The notes under the pieces are model-generated. The model saw nothing but the letters and a program-made list of their open reading frames with translations. It was not told the origin of the DNA and did no database searches. A stretch of 37,811 nt of DNA from Catajapyx aquilonaris (Eukaryota), in the NCBI GenBank assembly GCA_000934665.2, contig KZ538976.1:1-37811 (forward strand), read 5' to 3'. The position numbers and the translations under genes were made by a program. Shown here piece by piece: positions 5,382 to 33,976 of the stretch; within the stretch, counting starts at the first letter, position 1; each line of letters starts with the position of its first letter.

Positions 5382-6387
5382 TTACACTGTAGCATCCAGT
5401 ATCATTGCTAGCACCCTAGCTGACAGTTTCCAGATGTCCTTATTCCAGTGAGCAGATTGCTTCCACTGCTTCAGGTTCTTGATGGCAAACTCAACGCACC
5501 TCTTCTCCAGCAACTGGCAGCTGTAGTGTTCCGCCAGTTTAAACTTGGGCTGAAGATTGGCCAGATCCAACCCATGACTGAGGTGACTCTCGCACATTGT
5601 CTTAAGCATCTCAACTCCGTACTTGTCCGCAGCCTGGAGTATCTCCTCGCACAGGGTGCTCATCTTCTCAGGCTCCTTTCCGGAGTAGATGAAGAAGAGA
5701 ACCTCCTGGAGTACCTCTTGAGCGATATCTGCGATGATGACCCTTCCAGTTTGGTTCTCCAGTGTGTCGTGGTTGAGCATCGCTGCGAAGACGGGGCTTC
5801 TGGCTGCCAGAAGGACTCGATGGGCCACTAACTCGCGGCCTTCGGAGCTGACCAAGGTGACGTCGGTGTTGAGTCCGGACTCGTACATCCGGAGAAGGTC
5901 GTCCGACAGCTGAGAGGCGTTGGGGGTGTTGATCAGGTAGTCGATGTCTATCTTCCACTTGAGGCTGATGACCATGGCGTGTTCGTCCATAGTGGCCGCG
6001 AATTTGTCATACAGCATGTCGATGTAGAGGAAGTCCTTGCAGTTCGAGGTGCACTTTGTTATGTTCATGGTTTTGTTCTTAATATCGCCCGTTATTTTCC
6101 ATTCCAACACTGGCTTCAACTGGCCGTTTATGGGGGAGATGTGTGAGAGGTTGGCGATGGCGGATTTGGCTTCGTCGTCGTCGGACGTAGTCAGCAGCCA
6201 TTTTCCTGGGGAGGTGTTGAATTTGCCGATGACAAATTCTGGGGACTGGATGGATTGGTTAGCTGGTATTCCTTGGTGGGATAGTACATCTTCGGTGGTA
6301 AAGCGCCACTGGATGCTATAGGGTGAAATCCTTGTGATTGTTCCGACGGTTAAAAGTGAGGGTTCCATGTTGGTGAATGTCACAAGG
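5382..6387 (-). CDS. SPOP/roadkill-like MATH(divergent)-BTB-BACK protein; main coding exon
   Basis: 333-aa ORF. BTB signature LSDDLLRMYESGLNTDVTLVSSEGRELVAHRVLLAARSPVFAAML...VLFFIYSG...ILQAADKYGVEMLKTMCE, then BACK-like helices. MATH-like N-part (IQWRF...SPEFVIG...KWLL). Acceptor ttttccag ends at 6388; AATAAA on minus at 5333-5328. Start codon uncertain (internal ATG of MEPSLL, or an upstream exon). Confidence 0.85.
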
Positions 6388-7181
6388 CTGGAAAATATTA
6401 AGGGAGAAATGATGAGGTGGCCTCATCGAGTAGGAACAGAATTGAAGACATGATTTTCAGTCATTTTGTCACTTTTTTTAGACGATCAAGTCGGTTTTCT
6501 ACTAGAGAAGCAATAGCTACCGGTAAGTGTTTTGAAGAAATGTGGCTGCAGATAGTAAATTTTGGATTGAAGTGTTCTAAAACAGGTCGAATAATTTCAA
6601 CGACCAATGACAGATAAATACAACCAGCCCATAACTCCAGAACTACCTAAAATTTGCTAAAATTGCTAATATGGCTTACCAATTTTTTTTGCGAATTTTG
6701 TAGGCCTACTTGTCAGAGCTCCGAAGAGAACTGCAGATCAAGGCAATGACAACCGTAACTAACTTGCGAATTAGTTTATGGAATTGTTCCATTGATGACA
6801 CTGTTTACTTCTTTTACTACGCGACGGCATCTCCATGAAAATATGAAAGGGGGGGGGGATTGTTGACTATAACAAAGTGTAGGCCGGCCTGTTACGGAAA
6901 ATGCCCATAGTGGGCATCAACAAACAGAAAAGTACCCTTTTGGAAAACGAGAATTTGGTATGTTTTTTTTTGTTTTGTGGCAACCATTGTTTTACCTTTC
7001 CTCTTTTCAACAAACGACGGAAAAATTGGATTCATCCAATTTTGTACAAAATGTGGGTTAGGCCATTGTTGCCGTACTTTGCAAGAAACCAAGCACCAGT
7101 TTTTATTATTGCCTCTGTATCTGACAGTGTAACAGTTTGACAATCTTGCAGTAAAACTGTCAGTGTTATAACTCTTCGGCG

Positions 7182-8769
7182 TCACTGTATGGTATCCGAA
7201 GGGAAAAATGTGGGCCTCAACTTCATCTCCGTCTTGATCACTGGAATTTTTGAACGACCGCGAGGGTTCCACAACACGCCATTTTCCTGCATGGTTATCG
7301 GACCGTTCAGATTGGACTCGTAGCAGTCCCTGTACCACCATGCACCGATGTGAAGCTTGGCACAACTGCTGGGCCTCTCCAAGCCTGGCTCTTCAGTCCA
7401 CAAGTCGTTGTCTACGTCTTGAGTTGAGAAGGCCATTCCCGAGTGGGACGACAAGGCGTCCTCGGCGTCCCCATTGTGCCCTTCAACCATGAGTCGATAG
7501 TCCTCATCCTCGCTTCCTAATTGGAATCTTTTGTACACCGCCAGGCTCCTGTTGCCGTCAAACCATTCCATTTCGATTCGAAGGGACGTGCTTTTCAGCG
7601 AAGATAAGAAATTGATGTTATCCAGACCTGTGGAAATTGCATGGTATATGGACCTGCGTATTAAATTTAAAAATCATGCAGTACATACCAAGCCAAAATT
7701 CGTCTTCCAAGTACCCAAAGCCATCTTTATAATCAGACCAGAATCGATAGAAGTCCATATCTCCGGAGGTTCTTCTTTGAAATACAGTCCATCCACCACC
7801 GTCAGTATCCATGTCGCAAAAGGCCTGTTAAAATTGGGTTGTTACAAGTGGGCGATATTACGCACATTATTTTAGTCTTACTTCGAAGTCAGTGCCATTC
7901 CGATGAAGGGTGTAAACACCACTGGCGATATTCTTGCCTGATAACATGACCTCAGCGCAGGTTTGGAATTTTAAATCTGAGCACATAGGTGTGTTAATTA
8001 ATGCCAGGAAAAATTAATGGTGCTTTGCTTACCATGAGTCAAGTCTGATTCAGCAAGTGAACATTTTTCGGCCTGACACCAGGAGGAATTTATCGCGTCT
8101 TTTATTTCAGTGATGTGATTGATTAAGTCTTCTTTAGTGAAGCAATGTCTAGCAGAGCTCTGGAAATATAAGTCACAATATTTTGAAATTTGTTCGTAGA
8201 AACACAAGCATTGGTCAGCTCACCATTAACTCGCCATTCAAGTCAGTAAACGGTGCCTCCAAATCATCTGAACTTCTGCAAATAAAAAACCGGTACATTT
8301 TCAAAATTAATTGAATCAAAATGTTACTGACCTTACGATATTACCGTTTCGATCGATGAGAGATGTGTTCTTTGATTTTTTGCACTTCCCTTGCAAGCGA
8401 TGCCATTTGTTTGTTTAGGTGACGAGTCACATCATTTAAGTTATCATTTACTCTATCTAAAGGAGATGTTTTAGAAACAAATACCTTGCAAATAGCGGAC
8501 CACTGAAATAATAAGTCTGACAACTTACCCAGCATGCTGAATTTATCTTGAAAGATGCTTTCAAATGCATTGAGCTTGGATTCAATTGCACTAAATTTTA
8601 GTGATAACATGCTATTCAGCGCTTTGTAAATGTCCGACACAATACTCTCCGAGGCCCTTGGCACTTCCGGTAACGTGATGGCTTCGATAGTGTCATTTTG
8701 ATGCACCGTAACAGAAATACCAGCTACAAAACTGGCAGAGACGATGAAAGCGGCAGTAAAAGTGTGCAT
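7182..8769 (-). CDS. Fibrinogen-related protein FReD1 (signal peptide + coiled-coil + FBG domain; ficolin/tachylectin-5-like), about 7 exons
   Basis: Exons spliced by eye at GT-AG sites: [17 protein letters not shown] (signal) ... [21 protein letters not shown] / [18 protein letters not shown]...[13 protein letters not shown] / LDNINFL...FSTQDVDND...[21 protein letters not shown]...TEMKLRP. An alternative upstream ATG is possible. Confidence 0.9.
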
Positions 8770-9406
8770 GATTTTTGCAAATATGCTCTCATTCATGTGC
8801 CCTAATGACCTTGACTTATGCGCTATCAAGCGGATAGAAAGTGGTGTAATCGCCAGTAAATATTTTTATGAAGGAAACAGATAAAACATGCTCATAGTCA
8901 TCTGCAATATACTGTATAAAAAGGCGTAAAAACCCCGGGACATTATTAAAAGCAAGGTTAAGAGGGGACTATTATTTCTTGTAATTTTGCTTGTGTGTAT
9001 ATTTTGCATTTGTCCCCAATGTGTGAAGCCCTGGTATATTGCATAGTGTAGGCCTACACAAGAACAAGCGATGCAGATTGACATTTTTTGTCGAAAAGAT
9101 GGGACACATCCTGGAATGAAATTGATTTCCTGATTAGAGGGAAGTCGAACCAGGTATACATTTTGAAAAGCAGCTTCCCAGTTTGAACCATTTATTATGC
9201 ACTTAGAAAAATACGAAGTACTGTATTACATTAAAATGAACATGCAGAGAGCATTTTTTAACACACAAAAGGATTAGCAAATGGCCTTTGGACTGTACAG
9301 TGCGTCCTACATCAGCCACATTTGTTACGTATATAAGTACATTATTAATATCACGGGGGTAGTGTCCGTCTGCACAGGTTTACAGCGAGATGAATGAAGG
9401 GACGTA

Positions 9407-9634: not shown

Positions 9635-11662
9635 TTAATTTGTGTCGACATGAAATGAGTTTGGTCGCACCTTCATTTCAGTTGTACTGACTTGACTTTT
9701 ACGATACCACGCCGTCTTGTGGTTGTTCCACACCACATGTCCCCCTATCCCATCTAACGGGCCGTTTAGATTCGAATTATAGAAGTAGCTCTGATACCAC
9801 CAAGCGCCGGTGTACAGCTCGGCCAGGTTACCCGGTACGCCGTCATTGTCTCTGTCCCGTGTGCTGAAAGCCCATCCAGAATGCAACGTCAATCCGTCGT
9901 CGTCGTCGCCACTGTAGCCTTCCACCAGAAGGCGATACTTGTCATCTTCTCCTCCGACATAAAACCGACTGTAGAGTGCAGAAGTTCCGTTTCCGTCAAC
10001 ACGTCCTATTTCCACCCGAAGTGATGTTCTTTCTGCTGCAGTTAGCATGTGTATTTTGTCCAGACCTGCAAAGACAAGCGGTTTTATGCAATAGTTGCAG
10101 CCAACGTGTGAGTGACCAACCTAGCCAGTGGTCATCCGTCATATTTCCGAAGCCTTTCTTGAAGTCTGACCAGTATCTGTTGAAGTATAGCTGACCGGAT
10201 GTTCGCCTTTGTAATACGGTCCAGCCTCCTCCGTCAGTTTTCATGTCGCAGTAAGCCTGTGGTATTTATTTAAACTGTTTAAAACTGTCAGAAACGCGTT
10301 TCAGACCGAAGAGCTGGTTGATTAATTACTTTACATTATTTCCTATTATAGCGACAATACCTTACTTAGCTAGGAATATTATAATATACGCTATGTTATA
10401 AGTTACCTTAAATTGATAGCCGTCATGCAATTGTAAGGTGTAAACACCGCTGATGACATTTCCTGCAGTTCTGGCTTCAGCACAATTTCTGAAAATTCTA
10501 CCTAACAAGATTGAAATTTGTGTGTTAGTATTGGAAAACTAAGCAACTTTTCATTCGCTATCTTACTTTCTGGAGTGATACTTTCCACTGCATTATCTGT
10601 AGTAGAGGAGTGAATGCTCTCTTCATCTGGATGATTTGAATGCTGCAACTGTTCCAGTTCTGTATTACTTGGTGCAGCATTGTGGCATTTCCTGGTGATA
10701 TCAGTGTCCTTGACATCCTGAAGAATATAAGCGGCTTCACTGATTTTACTAACACAAGGTCCAATCAAAAAATAATTCCCTCATCCAGGCAGCACATTGT
10801 CTGGAGGAATAGGAAATACTGTTCAATTCTCACCACCAATCTCACCGAGCATTGTGAGTGATAAGTGTTAATTGTGGAATCAGTTTAATTATACATTTAT
10901 ATTTGCATACAGGTGGCAAAAATGATTAGTGGCAATGTGATTAGTATTGATTCCGTCCAATGAAAAGGATTCATTGTCCACACCTCGCCAGGTCAACCTC
11001 CAGCAGATGAGCGAACAGTTTTTGACCAAACTTGAAATAAAATAAACACAGCACCAATATATACTACCTTGTGCATCTCAGAAATGGAAACTGCGATGTT
11101 GCCGAGAATGTCTTCAGTTCTGTACAAAAATTAAAGGTAAATGCCACATTATAAGCTTAATATGCTTTATGGCGTCACAAAATTAGAAAATGTGAAGTGA
11201 AAAGCTATTTCCAATAACAGAAAGCAAACTATAAGTGTGGCGCAACATTGGAAGAACTACGACAAAACATGTGCATACACGTATATGTGTAACTGAAGTT
11301 ATCCTACCTTTCCGAATTTTTCCCCACATCAGAAGCAAGGACTGCTATCTGTTCGGCCAGTTTTTTCAATTCATTCTTTTGCTCAAGTTGACACTGATTC
11401 AGCTTCTCCTCTGGTAAAAATTAATATAAAAGATTAACGACTCATTAATGAAAGTTCAAAAACACTCACCTAATATGTTAATTTTCATGTTAATTTGCGA
11501 TTCCACATCCTTGAATTTGGCTTCCAAGAGTTCCTGCAATGCTCGGTACATTGTTGAATCCTTAACGTCATCAGGATGATCTTTTCGCGACTCATTTTCT
11601 ACACCGCAGATTATGTCCACTAAACAGAAAGCAACAATGAGCTTACCAATATGCGACCACAT
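9635..11662 (-). CDS. Fibrinogen-related protein FReD2 (signal peptide + coiled-coil + linker + FBG domain), multi-exon
   Basis: [20 protein letters not shown] signal at 11662; coiled-coil exons; FBG exons [20 protein letters not shown] / [18 protein letters not shown]...HWLG / LDKIHML...FSTRDRDND...GAWWY...SNLNG...TEMKVRP. Splicing of the middle exons (about 10.7-11.3 kb) is not resolved unambiguously. Confidence 0.85.
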
Positions 11663-22911: not shown

Positions 22912-25900
22912 TTATTGTACAAAGTAAAGTGCAGATATGATACCTCTGGTAGTACTAGTAAAGTCTGAATCAGTATGATTGAAAAACTCCACATTAACAT
23001 TCCTGCAACTAATGTTTTCAAGGCAATTTGAACAATATTGCATTCCGTCTGATTCGGAACAACATTCGGTGGTGAAATGTGGAATAAAAATTGACATCGT
23101 GTACATTTTGCCTCGTTCCATGAGAATCGGGTTACCAAACATTACTTCATACGGACTACTTAAGGAACTGTGGAAATTTGACAGTTCTTTTGAGTCGTCA
23201 GTCAACACTTTTACCTGCATATCGACCAGTGTTTTGCTGACTTTTGGGTAATGTTGACGATTATAATAATATGTATTCCTGTCCCCCTCTACATACCTCT
23301 CCACAATTTTAATGCCAGTTAAATAACACTTTTTGGGACATGTGGCCTGGAACTTCAGAACGTGATTTTCTGCCTGAGCAGAATGTCGATATGATATATC
23401 AAATTGATCCGATCTCCTGCACATAAATCCTCTGTCTGTGACTCTTTTGTTGCTCTTCTGTTCCGAAGGAGGCAAATTTTGTAGAAAATAGTACATGTAT
23501 GTGCTCAATTGCTTGTAACTGAGGATTCGATCAGGGACAACGTGGGTAACAAATTCATGCGGCGTCATGGATTCAAAATTGATGAGTGGCAAGACAGGAT
23601 CTAGTTGTCGTCGAAGACTTTCTGGAGTTGATGTCCGATTGGTTCTCCACAATATTGATGTCTTAGCCCTAATTTATGTGAAAGAGGAAACATTTTAGCA
23701 TGGGGTTTAACAACTGGCATGCACTGATCTTACCATTGCATTGTAGATTGGTAAATTTCTAATTCGGTGGCTGCCAAAAATGGACTGCTCAATATCTTTT
23801 CAATAACATTATTCGGTAGCATGAAAAAATTCATTCCATTAAGGACTTCTTTTGCATTCACGTCAACAAACTGGAAATATACATACACGCAACATTAATT
23901 CGGATATATTTGAATATCATACTAATATTACTATGTCGCAGGTAATTAGATTTGGTGTGTGTTAACACATTCAGTGTTACTGCTGAAAGCAAATTATTGC
24001 CCAGAAAATACTGGATACAGTCAGATGACTGATTGCTAGTGACAATCACATCATGCGTCCACGTTTAAATGATAAGTTAATAATTTTTCTCGAGTGAAAG
24101 GACCATACCCTCAAGCAGAGTTCTTCCAATTTCGATTCGTTGTAAAATGTAGCTTTTTGTAGTGACTCTAAAACGTTGCTAGTGGATATTCCCGTATTGA
24201 GGTACTGAAATGGAAAAAAATATGAGACTGTATTTTTATAAGTACTCTCATTATTCCATACCTCTACCAGTTTTGAGGTAATTAGTTGCCTGTAGTTGAC
24301 AACGACAATGATGATGGTGGTGACTTTACACGGTGGGTTGCCTTCTTACAGCTAATTACTTTTAAATACCCTATTTTATTTATAGCCTCCGTAATATTGA
24401 ATTTAGAAATTGGTACGATATGGAAATACCTTAAGAAAACCCACCCAAGTAAGAAAATAATCCATAATACTCTGTCCCAATGAATAAAGTCCGCCCCTCT
24501 ACAGTGCTGGCCATATATCGAGGCAACCGCCAGCGATATTTTTCCGAAGCGGCAGAAGAAGGAATCAAAGATAAGCATGCTACAAGCCGGGCGAGCAAGA
24601 TTCCTTCTTCTGCCGCTTCGGAAAAATGTCGCTGGCGGTTGCCTCGATATATGGCCAGCACTGTACAATTGGAGATTGGTCTCGATACCTTAGAAGTGAT
24701 ATGATTGTGGCCATGTTTTGCAATATGTATAATAAAAAGCAATAAGATTCGGATAACTGGTATAAATCTCAGTTTATTGTAAGAGCCATGAGGCATGACT
24801 AATTTTTAGATGTGACATTTTGATACAGTTGTTAAGCTAGGTGCAATAATTATTATAAATCTGGCATGTTTGGACTATTGAAATCAAGAGTGAACTAATT
24901 CATTCCCTCTTGTATAAATTCGTCGATGCTTGGAATTACCTCGCTAGTCTTTTCTAGCAGATGTCCCATTTGGAACTTGTTCGCCAAATACCACAAGTCC
25001 CAGGCATCCGGCATAGAACTCATTTCTGTGTCATCCTTGTAAACATAGCTAAGCAGCTTCTCAAAAATATTTGCATCCACATCTGATATGTCCAGGGTGC
25101 CATTCACGTCCCTTCTTGATTCTCCGTAGAGGTCCTTTGCGAATACAGGACTGCTCATTGCCAGAAGCAAGCGGTGGGCCTGTGAAGTTCAGTTATAATA
25201 AATTATTTGAGAATTTTGGTATAACGTAGTCTATCTACGTATTTTAACAATCTCACTGCTTGAGCAGCTTTCAGTGTCTGTATGTACAAAGGTAAAACCA
25301 AAATACAGTAGTGTATAACGTTAGCGAGCACCCTTCGTTTAAGAAGAACCACGAAATGTAATTATGTACCTGTTGAGGCATTTTTGTTGTGTAACAAAAA
25401 CAACAATGACATTGATCATATGGTGGGAATAAAAAACTGAGTCTATTGTTCTCAAATATAGCTTGGCTATTATTTAGGCCTCTCATGCAAACCATACAAC
25501 GTAAGAAATTCGTGCTAAATGTAAGTGTTTGTATCGATACTTACGGGGAATATTTTCTTGTCCTCTCCAACGCATAGTTTGATATCGGAAAAAATCTCGG
25601 ACTCAAAAAGGTGACTTGCTCTATTTCTCAGGGAAGTGGTGGCTGTTTGCCATTGGTGCGATTCTTCCTTCTCCGGCTGTCTTCCATCATCCACAGTGGG
25701 TGACGCCGTTTCAGTTGATGAAGATATTATGCCTAAGTCCTTCTCTCCTTGGGATTGGTTGAGTCTATAAAATGCCAACATATTATACTGGTTTCTATAT
25801 TATTTTACAATTGAAACAGAAAGCGACGGAAAGTTTACTGCAGCGAAGGCTCACTTGTTAAAATGTAGAAAAAATCACACTACCAATTTCAGTCCCTCGA

Positions 25901-26127
25901 TTTACATTGGAATGTTAAATTATTATAAAATTGCAGAAGCCTTCTGTGCCATTCGCAATTTGCTGTACAATAGTTTCATCTCAGGTATAACTTTGAAATT
26001 TAAAATGTGTAAATTGCATTACTTACTCCAAATCATGTTCTCCCGGATATTCATCTTGAGACTACTGGCCGTGGGCTATCCCCGTGATAAAAAGAACAGC
26101 CAGTAGCGTAGCAAAAAGTGTCCCCAT
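22912..26127 (-). pseudogene. BTB-BACK-PHR gene copy B1 with signal-peptide exon carrying an in-frame TAG at codon 22 (pseudogene, null allele or sequencing error)
   Basis: Exons 26127-26027, 25764-25545, 25179-24940, 24204-24109, 23870-23734, 23668-22912 (1551 nt, in frame). WQ...SLRNRASHLFESEIFSDIKLCVG / AHRLLLAMSSPVFAKDLYG (BTB); BACK; PHR C-terminus (VMFGNPILMERGKMYTM...TSTTRGIISALYF). TAG at 26064-26062 where B2 has TTG. Confidence 0.75.
24502..24663. mobile_element. Tc1/mariner-type MITE (162 bp) in an intron of B1
   Basis: 65-bp TIRs (CAGTGCTGGCCATATATCGAGGC...) with one mismatch, TA on both sides; absent from the homologous intron of B2 (about 31155). Confidence 0.92.
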
Positions 26128-28093: not shown

Positions 28094-28103
28094 NNNNNNN
28101 NNN
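28094..28103. other. Assembly gap (10 N)
   Basis: Run of N inside intron 1 of the A3 relic. Confidence 1.
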
Positions 28104-28174: not shown

Positions 28175-28492
28175 TCTTATCGCCTGCCGGGGCGTTTTGC
28201 ATGAGGTGCTCACCTGAGACCGCCATGAGACCTTTCACGGAGCAATTACTCGTATGTGGCGACCCTACCGGACTGCGCTGAACTTAATAGGTACAAAAGG
28301 GAAGCGCTGCATGCGGGCCCAACATGGCCGCCGGCGACCATGTTCAGTCCCCCAATGTAGCGCTTCCCTTTTGTACCTATAAAGTTCAGCGCAGTCCGGT
28401 AGGGTCGCCACATACGAGTAATTGCTCCGTGAAAGGTCTCATGGCGCTCTCAGGTGAGCACCTCATGCAAAACGCCCCGGCAGACGATAAGA
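28175..28492. repeat. Near-perfect fold-back palindrome (138-bp arms plus inner 12-bp hairpin), probably a non-autonomous element
   Basis: Arms 28175-28312 and 28355-28492 are reverse complements with few mismatches; centre aacatggccgcc/ggcgaccatgtt at 28321-28344. Lies within an insertion (28143-28526) bracketed by ATTGAC direct repeats. Confidence 0.9.
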
Positions 28493-29334: not shown

Positions 29335-32300
29335 TTATTGTACAAAGTAAAGTTTAGATATAATACCTCTGGTAGTGCTGGTAAAGTCTGAATCAGTATG
29401 ATTGAAAAACTCCACATGAACATTATTCCTGCAACTAATGCTTTCAGGGCAATTTGAACAATATTGCATTCCTTGTGATTCACAACATTCGGTGGTGAAA
29501 TGTGGAATAAAAATTGACATCGTGTACATTTTGCCTCGTTCCATGAGAATCGGGTTATCAAACATTACATCATACGGACTACTTAAGGACCCGTGGAAAT
29601 TAAACAGTTCTTTTGCTTCATCAGTCAACACTCTCACCTGCACACCGTGTAATGATCTGTCTCGGATGCTGACTGATGGTATTTCTCGAGGTATTTCTTC
29701 ATAATCGTTATATTCATAACTGGAGCTATCTCTCTCTCCCTCTACATACCTTTCCACAATTTGAATGCCAGTTAAATAACACTTTTTGGAACATGTGGCC
29801 TGGAACTTCAGAAAGTGATTTTCAGCAGGAGCATTCCGGCGATATGATATATCCCATCGATTTGATCGCCTGCACGTTGATATTCTCTTATTTTTGACTC
29901 TCGCATTGCTCTTCTGTTCCGAAGGAGGCAAATTTTGTAGGAAATAGTACATGTGTGTACTCAGTTGCTTGTAACTGAGGATTCGATCAGGGACAACATG
30001 GGTAACAAATTCATGCGCCGTCATGGCTTCAAAGTTGATGAGTGGCAAGACAGGCTCTAGTTGTCGTCGAAGACTTTCTGGAGTTACAGTCACAACTGTT
30101 ACAGCCCTATTGGTCCACCCCCACAATTTTGGTGACTCATCCCTGTGAAATAAAGATAAATCATTTTAGCATGGGGTTTTACAACATTGGCATATACACT
30201 GATCTCACTCTCGTATTGTAGATTGGTAAATATCTAATTCGGCGGTCCTATTGGTCCGCCACAATATTGATGACTTGGCCCTGTGAAAGAGGAATCATTT
30301 TAGCATGGGCTTTTACAACATTGGCATACACTGATCTCACCAATGCATTGTAGAGTGGTAAATATCTAATTCAGTGGCTGCCAAAAATGGACTGCTCAAT
30401 ATTTTTGAAATAACATCATTCGGTAGCATGAAAAAATCCTTTCCATTTAGGACCCTCTTTGCATTCACGTCAATAAACTGTAAATATACATACATGCAAT
30501 ATTATTTCAGATATATTTGAGAATCACACTGATAATACTCTGTTGCGGGCATTTCATAGATTTAGTGTGAGTAAACACATTCAATGTTAATTACTGCTGA
30601 AGCAAATTATTGCCCAGAAGAAATTCTTGCTACTTTACAGTCAGATGACTGATTGATAGTGCCGATCACATCATGCTTCCACATTTAAATGATAAGTTAA
30701 TAATTTTTTTCACGAGTGAGAGGACCATACCCTCAAACAGAGTTCTTCCAATTTCGATTCGTTGTAAAATGTAGCTTTTTGTAACGACTGTAAAACGTTA
30801 CTAGTTGAGATTCCCGTGTTGATGTACTGAAATTGAGAGAAACATCAGACTATATTTTTTGAGCAGGCCTACTGTATAAAGGAGTACTCTCATGATTCCA
30901 TATCTACAGTATATACCAGTTTCAGGTCGATTAATTTGTTAATAACAATAACAACGACAGTGATAATGAAGATGAAGTAATAATACTTCACAAGACGGAT
31001 TTTCTCTCTTATAACTATTCACATTTAAATGCCTTACTCTACTTACAACTTCCATAACGATGAATTTAGATAGTGGGAGGAATAAACTCGAGAAAACCTA
31101 CCCAAGCAAGGATATAATGCACAAAAACTGCCCCGAAATAAAATTCCAGCCCGTCTATATCCTGTAATACGATCTCGAAACCTCAGAGGTGAGTGCATGG
31201 CCATTTATTGCAATTAACTAGCAGGTTACCCGGCGTTGCCCGGGTATGTTGGGATGCTGTTAAAGGTACGGGTACATATATATTAGGAAGTTTGTTTGTT
31301 TGTAAAATTTGCGTTCCATACACTGGAACTCGATACACCTTAAAATAAGGCCAAGTTACAATAAGGCAAAGTTTGTCACTATCTGGGATAGATTGCCTGC
31401 TTTGGTTATAGCGTAGTCAATGTAGACATTCTGATTGGATGTGTAAAAAGAGGAATAGGGATGGAGTTGTCCCAGGAAAAGACTTCACAGCCATGTTTTT
31501 TTCCCCAGAATATTTGACCCTCAACCCCACCTCACACCCCCACCTCTTTCCAACTGTTTGCCCTGAAGAACTTGAGAAATGTATATACCGATGCCTGGTG
31601 GGAAATTTTGTTTTCAACACTGCGTAATTTTTGAACAAATCATTTTTCTTGTATTTATTTGTGTCGAGAAGAGTCTAATTTCAAATCTACAAAATCCCAG
31701 AATGACCATACCATATGAACTCACGTGAGGTGGCCAATTAGCGTAATTGGCGGATGAGTTGAATAATTTACGGCGATGGGACTTGTAAAAAAAGAGCCGC
31801 AAGATATACTTGGATAGATGCAATGCAAATGCATTACTTTGATAGGTATTGTGCATAAGGGCATTTCCATGGGATTGCGAACTTGGGAAAAGATAAATTG
31901 TCGTTGTTGCTATAGGAGTTGATGTAATTATGTTAATTGTTGAGGCGCGAGTAGGGAGAAGATTCGGGAATATGCGTGTTGTGGGAGTTATAAGGTTCAT
32001 TTTCGGAAGCTGAAACATGCGGCGTTTAGATTCCTTGGAAAATGTAACCCCCGATATGCTAATTTAAGGCGGTGTAAGGGCCTTCCCCTGGATTTCTATA
32101 AGGGACAAACATCCAAACTAACAAACTTCCTTATTTATAGATATAGAGATAACATGAGTAACAAGATTAAGACAACTGGTTGAAAGATTGGTGCATTGTA
32201 GTAGCACAGGCAACTACGTCCATGAGAAATAACGGGTACGGTATTGATATTTCGCATTTTGATACAACTGTTAGGTCAGGTGCAATAATTATAAATCTAG

Positions 32301-33550
32301 CAGATTTGAACTATTGAAATTAAGAGTGAATCAATTAGTTCCGCCTTGTTTGAATTCATTTACTTTCGGAATTACCTCACTCGTCTTTTCTAGCAGATCC
32401 CCCATTTGGAATCTGTTGGCCAAATACCACAAGTCCCAGGCATCCGGCATAGAACTCATTTCTGTGTCATCCTTGTAAACGTAGCTAAGCAGCTTCTCAA
32501 AAATATTTGCATCTACATCTGATATTTCCAGGGTGCCATTCACGTCCCTTCGTGATTCTCCGTAGAGGTCCTTTGCGAATACAGGGCTGCTCATTGCCAG
32601 AAGCAAGCGGTGGGCCTACAAAGTTGGTATGTATTAATATATTCAGTATAATCTCACTGCATCGTGAAAAGCTTTTATAGTACACCTACACACTGTATAA
32701 TAGACTATATGCACCAAAAAGTAACAAAAAATCTAATAGGTCTACTAATGAGCAACATTCGTTTAAGAAGAACCATTAAAATAATGTAATATTCTTTACT
32801 TATGCACTTGAGGCCTGCTTTTTGCGTAGCTAAATACAACCGTAACATTCATCATATTTAGGAAATTAAAAACTGCGCCTTATATTGTTGCCCCGTTGAA
32901 AAATATATATCTTGACTATTATATTTAGGCGTCACTTGCAGACCTACAGCGTAAGAAATTTTAGTGTTTGTACTTACAGGGAATGTTTTTCTGTCCTCTG
33001 CAATGCACAGTTTTATATCGGAAAATATCTCAGACTCATAAAGGTGACTTGCTCTATTTCTCAGGGAAGTGGTGGCTGTTTGCCATGGGTGCTCTTCTTT
33101 CTCCGTTTGTCTTCCATCTACTGCCGTTGTCGCTGTGTCAGCTGATGAAAATAAGCCCAAGTCCCTCTCTCCTTGAGCTTGGTTGAGTCTTTTAAAATGA
33201 CAACAAATTAGTCGACACTGATTTATTACTATTTTAAAATTGAGATAGTAAGCAAGGAAAAATCTGCTGCAGCAACGGTTCACGTTTATTAAATGTTAAA
33301 ATCACCGCGCTATTTTCAGATCCACTACTTACCTGAAAGTCTTAATTAGTAATATTGCAGAAGCCTTCGGTGTCTTACGCAATATGCAGTAGTTTTAAGT
33401 TAGGAATAACTTTAACATTTATCATTATTGTGTGAATTACAATACTTACTCCAAATCATGTTCTCCTGGATATTCATCTTGAAACAACTGGCCGTGGGCT
33501 ATCCCCGTGATATAAAGAGCAGCCAGCAGGATAGAAAAAAATGTCCCCAT
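29335..33550 (-). CDS. BTB-BACK-PHR (BTBD1/2/3/6-like) protein copy B2 with N-terminal signal peptide, 554 aa, 7 exons
   Basis: Exons 33550-33450, 33188-32978, 32615-32376, 30826-30731, 30477-30341, 30280-30209, 30142-29335 (1665 nt, open). Starts MGTFFSILLAALYITGIAHG|QLFQDEYPGEHDLELNQAQG...; BTB, BACK and PHR motifs as in B1. Confidence 0.85.
31218..32149 (-). mobile_element. Non-autonomous Helitron in intron 3 of B2
   Basis: Minus strand begins TC (tctctatatctataaataaggaagtttgttagtttgg) and ends with a GC hairpin (tacccgggcaacgccgggta, 31246-31227) followed by CTAG. Inserted between A and T, no TSD; absent from the B1 intron. Confidence 0.85.
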
Positions 33551-33976
33551 CCTAAGGTGACTAGTCAACGAATTGAGATTATTCTGATTCCAGGCTGTGT
33601 GACTTATTTCTACACGTCCTATATCGCTCTACTGCCCCATGTGCACCATCTGTTCCCAGTTCGGTAAAGTTGACATAACTTCTAATCAATCAGCACAATC
33701 GTGAAACATCATGTGCATATATTGGGCCCCTCCGTGACCCAAAGACTTGACCCACATTTTGATGCATCATCTTACTGATATAATATGCTGATGGTTCGGC
33801 ATGGTTCACAGCCAAAGTTCCCGCAGGACCAGGAAAACTAAGTCAAAAACTGATATTTGTTTTTGCAAGACAAACAGTTCTTATCATGCAAAAACAAAAA
33901 TCAGAAAAATGAATATTATTGCAGCCGTCAGGGTTATAAACTATTAATAGTGCTGAAGAGTGTAGGCCTATATACA

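Follow-up and report, generated by a model that had tools for sequence, protein, structure and literature searches.

Can a protein built like an intracellular Cullin-3 adaptor be addressed to the secretory pathway? BTB-BACK adaptors are textbook intracellular Cullin-3 (Cul3) substrate receptors, and the BTB-BACK-PHR (BBP) family includes Drosophila lute together with BTBD1, BTBD2, BTBD3 and BTBD6. In the text available from three sources, BBP proteins appear as Cul3 adaptors that work inside the cell (PMC1257465, PMC4033408, bioRxiv 10.1101/575910), and a BBP protein is described as shuttling between nucleus and cytoplasm (bioRxiv 10.1101/575910). The question is raised by a gene, hereafter B2, located on the minus strand of the window, i.e. 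the whole stretch of 37,811 nt analysed here from contig KZ538976.1 of Catajapyx aquilonaris, for which an earlier note had proposed a short first exon encoding a secretory signal peptide ahead of the exons for BTB, BACK and PHR domains. A paralogue, hereafter B1, lies in tandem with it, and the features of both copies are collected in Table 1.

Table 1. Features of the tandem copies B2 and B1 (positions in the window)
Feature	Positions	Strand	Remarks
Upstream block common to B1 and B2	33551..33912	-	Likely promoter; blastn boundary 33912/26482
B2 exon 1	33450..33550	-	Supported by sequence, splice phase, crude signal-peptide test and Kozak-like context
B2 predicted signal peptide	33550-33491	-	MGTFFSILLAALYITGIAHG, predicted cleavage before Q
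B2 intron 1	33189..33449	-	261 nt, GTAAGT...AAAAG
B2 exon 2	32978..33188	-	Acidic linker, then BTB start; no in-frame Met; dN/dS 0.21 vs B1
B2 exon 3	32376..32615	-	BTB core; Pfam BTB E 1.2e-13; dN/dS 0.08
B2 exon 4	30731..30826	-	BTB end and BACK start
B2 exon 5	30341..30477	-	BACK; Pfam BACK E 0.0015, below cut-off, 45-aa piece
Optional in-frame exon (72 nt, 24 aa)	30209..30280	-	AG/GT-flanked
B2 exon 6	29335..30142	-	BACK end, PHR-type beta domain with cysteine-rich loop, stop codon
B1 exon 1	26027..26127	-	Length as in B2; in-frame TAG at 26064-26062 (codon 22)
B1 exons 2-6	22912..25764	-	Frame otherwise open; Pfam BTB, BACK, PHR
B1 exons 2-6, borders	25764-25545, 25179-24940, 24204-24109, 23870-23734, 23668-22912	-	

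Gene model and predicted start exon of B2

On the minus strand, positions 33550-33450 (101 nt) read from an ATG to GA/GTAAGT, the slash marking the exon-intron border, and translate as MGTFFSILLAALYITGIAHGQLFQDEYPGEHDL, in agreement with what the earlier note had read there. With the acceptor AG at 33190-33189, exon 1 joins position 33188 in phase 2 and the frame continues into the BTB exon, so that the junction previously put forward is in frame; reading through the exon 1 donor leads immediately to a TAA. ATG 33550 is the earliest Met following the in-frame stop upstream and stands in a Kozak-like context (A at -3 and G at +4). Immediately 5' of this ATG there is an AG (cttag/G), at which an upstream exon could join. 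The complete B2 model comprises the six numbered exons of Table 1, with canonical AG/GT borders and an open frame of 530 aa; the 554-aa model proposed earlier is reproduced if the optional in-frame 72-nt exon is added. This potential exon, absent from B1, arose when the exon 5 end, the intron and the beginning of exon 6 were duplicated in tandem within B2.

Regarding the position of the start, translation beginning within exon 2 or exon 3 was considered and rejected, exon 2 being devoid of Met and the next Met downstream lying inside the BTB core. Since exon 2 lacks a Met in B1 and B2 alike and is yet constrained in frame, an upstream start exon is required. The homology between B1 and B2 stops 360 nt upstream of the ATG (blastn boundary 33912/26482), so that the shared promoter and start most likely lie within that block, where a long stretch 100% identical between the two copies contains a TATA-like GATATAGG.

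The N-terminus encoded by exon 1 opens with the uncharged n-region MGT, devoid of positive charge, followed by the core FFSILLAALYITGIA of 15 uncharged hydrophobic residues and then by A-H-G, with Q as the first residue past the predicted cleavage site; A thus occupies position -3 and G position -1. The residues past this site form an acidic stretch, so that it is the C-terminal side whose translocation is favoured. The N-terminus shows the hallmarks of a eukaryotic cleavable signal peptide, namely a short n-region, a hydrophobic core of 7-15 residues and small residues at -3 and -1. The signal-peptide test was a crude home-made rule rather than SignalP. Of the 300 open frames in the window that start with ATG and reach 34 codons or more, six passed this rule, exon 1 among them; another of the six, an ORF beside a fibrinogen-domain gene, probably begins with a true signal peptide. 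Within the 4.6 kb upstream of exon 2, 48 ATGs gave 86 candidates running from ATG to a phase-2 GT, three of which passed the crude rule, all of them from ATG 33550, and among the candidates listed the chosen donor alone shows the full GTAAGT on the intron side. Judged from these sequence features, exon 1 appears to be the sole plausible start exon, and its product looks like a cleavable signal peptide, as the earlier note had claimed, this being a prediction of the crude test. Exon 1 would accordingly be expected in the B2 mRNA.

Domain architecture and the Cul3-binding surface

Domain and structure searches were run on single exons rather than on the whole protein. The BTB domain is clear in exon 3 of both copies (Pfam PF00651, E 1.2e-13 in B2 and 8.7e-14 in B1), and the PDB sequence matches of this exon are KLHL3, BTBD6 and SPOP. 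For BACK, the 45-aa exon 5 gives a weak match that falls short of the cut-off in both copies (PF07707, E 0.0015 in B2 and 0.0029 in B1), and exon 6 opens with a stretch predicted to be helical, in a low-confidence model. The sole Pfam match of exon 6 is PHR (PF08005) in both copies, weak and below the cut-off (E 0.0052 in B2 and 0.019 in B1). In the ESM Atlas, the nearest clusters of exon 6, and of its PHR part alone, are named PHR or BTBD6, with scores of 0.94-0.95 and 191-202 of 256 features shared with the PHR clusters. The AlphaFold model of the whole exon 6 had a mean pLDDT of 38.2 and was left out of the fold search. The model of the PHR part, with a mean pLDDT of 52.8 and core strands at 65-84, retrieved solved PHR domains with Foldseek at ranks 1, 2, 4 and 5, the PHR matches being MYCBP2 PHR2 (3hwj, E 3e-4), MYCBP2 PHR1 (3gbw) and BTBD2 PHR (3no8). 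The BTB-BACK-PHR architecture announced in the earlier note is thus upheld, strongly by Pfam for BTB and weakly for BACK and PHR, the latter being backed by the Atlas and Foldseek, and B2 is accepted as a divergent member of the BTBD1/2/3/6 type.

Whether the Cul3-binding residues are retained, a check called for by the earlier note, was examined for region i alone, that is the phi-x-E motif together with residues of helix alpha3, using HMMER alignments to KLHL3, BTBD6 and SPOP. In KLHL3, M83-S84-E85 form the phi-x-E motif in Cul3 binding, and the substitutions A77E, M78V and E85A each abolished measurable Cul3 binding, according to the part of the source available (PMC3616122). Opposite the KLHL3 residues A77, M78, M83, S84 and E85, B2 carries K, D, S, R and R, B1 being identical there, and BTBD6 (2vkp) retains A, M, L, A and E at those positions. 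Region i of B2 is therefore replaced, with S-R-R at the position of the phi-x-E motif in exon 3, which favours a Cul3-independent role; by analogy with the KLHL3 mutants, B2 may have lost Cul3 docking.

Besides the NGT sequon located in the same exon 3, the sequons NES and NHT are conserved between B1 and B2, making three N-glycosylation sequons in all, and ten cysteines stand at matching positions in both copies, five of which share a single PHR loop; beyond the N-terminal core there is no further hydrophobic segment. The sequons and the even number of cysteines would fit a luminal or extracellular life, each being a weak indicator when taken alone. Of note, the cysteine-rich loop (about 29428-29502, minus strand; B2 residues 476-500) gathers five Cys in about 20 residues in both copies, in a low-confidence model, and may represent either a disulfide knot or a site for metal binding.

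Paralogue B1 and competing readings

B1 shares the six-exon layout of B2, every splice site being intact in the one as in the other. Exon 1 shows 90% identity between the two, with 10 of 101 bases differing and no indel, compared with 86% for the upstream 360 nt (27 gap columns) and 74% for intron 1 (23 gap columns); exon 1 is therefore better kept than intron 1 but little better than the putative promoter. The replacements in the hydrophobic core of B1 (F>L, S>A, I>T, A>V and Y>F) leave it hydrophobic. The earlier statement that exon 1 is kept in B1 consequently holds for its length and hydrophobic start but fails for the open frame, a TTG>TAG change having closed codon 22. With a dN/dS of 0.78 over exon 1 and 1.43 over the signal part, and with an identity near that of the upstream block, conservation of this exon between the copies is no proof of coding.

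Over exons 2-6, B1 and B2 differ with a dS of 0.28 and a dN/dS of 0.34, and all ten gap blocks of the protein alignment preserve the frame, which together indicate that, ever since they duplicated, the two copies have spent most of their history as functional genes. Within this tandem pair, B2 is intact and subject to purifying selection. As for the TAG in B1 with the rest of its frame open, it means either that B1 is dead or that exon 1 is unneeded for the B1 protein. Our reading is that B1 lost its function recently, represents a null allele or suffers from a single-base sequencing error, and the pattern of exon 1 fits a loosely constrained signal peptide combined with such a recent nonsense change, null allele or base error; the nonsense codon equally warns that exon 1 may be dispensable. 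Of note, the same TTG>TAG change (26062-26067, minus strand) also creates CA/GTAGTC, a phase-2 GT from which the signal peptide could be spliced to exon 2 minus 13 codons; this is a weak donor, matching 4 of 9 consensus positions by hand count, and its use is speculative.

Several other elements were seen in the window. On the minus strand, a single-exon open frame of 346 aa (5382-6422) has a strong BTB match in Pfam (E 1.2e-23) together with a BACK match of SPOP type that is weak, its N-terminal part of about 170 aa being without assignment; it represents a second, unrelated kind of BTB gene. Exons for fibrinogen C-terminal domains, a type common in secreted invertebrate lectins, occur at 7182-7673 and 9635-10120 (both minus strand; Pfam E 3.5e-29 and 1.5e-27), and between them an ORF (8341-8865, minus strand) has a signal-peptide-like start; together, they resemble a tandem set of fibrinogen-related genes with secreted products, at about 20 kb from B2. 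Two near-perfect hairpins, one inside B1 intron 3 (24500-24665; 67-nt arms 99% complementary, 32-nt loop) and the other between B1 and B2 (28175-28492; 143-nt arms 96% complementary, 32-nt loop), the latter with 10 consecutive N beside it (28094-28103), have the appearance of miniature inverted-repeat elements.

The most serious competitor of a secreted B2 is an ordinary BTB-BACK-PHR protein of the cytosol or nucleus, the true start of which would lie elsewhere, upstream of 33912 or in some unrecognised place, the 101-nt exon then being 5'UTR or an alternative exon with a signal-like frame arisen by chance. The closed exon 1 frame of an otherwise intact B1 speaks for it, as do the dN/dS of exon 1 near 1 and the intracellular nature of all BBP proteins described so far in the available text of the three sources (PMC1257465, PMC4033408, bioRxiv 10.1101/575910). 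Nonetheless, we hold it to be rather unlikely, for no other in-phase candidate within 4.6 kb combines a good donor with the look of a start exon, the duplicated unit extends no further than 360 nt upstream, a signal-like frame is expected by chance in about 2% of cases and the phi-x-E motif of a Cul3 adaptor has been replaced. A rather different reading, in which B1 and B2 would be decaying, lineage-specific duplicates without function, could draw on the B1 nonsense codon, on the internal duplication in B2 and on the lack of any sequence relative in the libraries searched; against a dN/dS of 0.34 overall and 0.08 in the BTB, ten of ten gap blocks in frame and intact splice sites on both sides, it is very improbable.

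Exon 1 could also be used with its signal left uncleaved, in which case B2 would be a type II membrane protein with its domains luminal or outside, a protein retained in the ER or Golgi or, more remotely, a cytosolic protein attached to membranes through N-myristoylation at its MG start. The absence of positive charge in the n-region speaks for such a reading, and the M-G-T-x-x-S start of B2 fits the N-myristoylation consensus. However, about 15 uncharged residues make a short core for a membrane span, mean hydropathy over 19-residue windows of B2 reaching 1.59 at best, the -3/-1 site offered by A-H-G is good and the C-terminus carries no KDEL-type signal. This makes an uncleaved signal improbable, and cleavage after A-H-G is retained in what follows as part of the preferred reading, namely that B2 enters the secretory pathway.

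A putative secreted branch and its known counterparts

That B2 is a protein of the secretory pathway, with a BTB-BACK-PHR architecture and a cleavable signal peptide, is given about an even chance. If so, the B2 protein would be translocated into the ER and its signal cut after A-H-G, leaving a mature chain made of the acidic linker, the BTB dimerisation module, BACK and the PHR beta-sandwich. It would then work, extracellularly or within the secretory pathway, as a binding or scaffold protein dimerised through BTB and without Cullin-3 docking, in a mode that in principle might be akin to that of vertebrate LGALS3BP and BTBD17. The other role suggested in the earlier note, an effector passed on to another cell, finds no support in the features seen here. 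A broader proposal, somewhat less probable and put forward tentatively, is that a lineage-specific branch of the BTBD1/2/3/6 type moved to the secretory pathway through gain of a signal exon, loss of the Cul3 motif and acquisition of a disulfide-rich PHR loop, its product being a dimeric extracellular recognition protein. At present, this is a gene-model prediction from one animal genome, with one member of the pair disrupted in the decisive exon. Should it prove true, secreted BTB proteins would have arisen a second time, independently of LGALS3BP/BTBD17, the BTB-BACK scaffold would have been reused extracellularly more than once, and the little-understood PHR domain would gain an extracellular binding role amenable to assay.

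Relatives of B2 were sought in several collections. A phmmer search with exon 6 against 1.84 billion representatives gave a single match (E 8.4e-4), covering 41 residues of a 6382-aa protein, which was rejected as spurious. Homologous-protein searches with exon 6, exon 3 and the alignment A2 returned nothing up to E 10, a scan of metagenome contigs gave 413 pattern matches, none of which encodes a relative, and PDB sequence searches with exon 6, exon 2 and the profile A2 yielded chance-level matches only. In open-access text, genome annotations being outside the scope, no description of a signal peptide on a BTB-BACK-PHR protein was found, and the words 'signal peptide' and 'secreted' are absent from the available text of two BTB-BACK-PHR papers (PMC1257465, PMC4033408).

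Compared with the BBP proteins BTBD1, BTBD2, BTBD3 and BTBD6, B2 has BTB, a probable BACK and a C-terminal PHR beta domain in the same order, its BTB core aligns to that of BTBD6 (2vkp), and its PHR model matches BTBD2 (3no8) and the MYCBP2 PHR domains. It departs from them in the predicted signal peptide, which stands where the N-terminus of BBP proteins is cytosolic, in the S-R-R that takes the place of phi-x-E among the Cul3 region-i residues, and in a PHR domain that holds an acidic insertion and a loop rich in cysteines; it is moreover so divergent that the Pfam PHR match stays under the cut-off and that phmmer finds no relative among the 1.84 billion representatives. According to the part of the source available, LGALS3BP (Mac-2BP/90K, BTBD17B) is secreted and comprises a signal peptide, an SRCR domain, BTB/POZ, IVR and a C-terminal domain, where BTB serves as the dimerisation module (PMC5015019). 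Unlike LGALS3BP, B2 has no SRCR match in the exons scanned, Pfam finding none in exon 2, and its C-terminal domain is of the PHR type, which may set it apart from LGALS3BP and BTBD17, these systems being compared by description rather than by sequence. With a predicted signal peptide, BTB, a probable BACK and an additional C-terminal domain, B2 would share the general layout of LGALS3BP and BTBD17, which would then be its closest analogues in mode of action.
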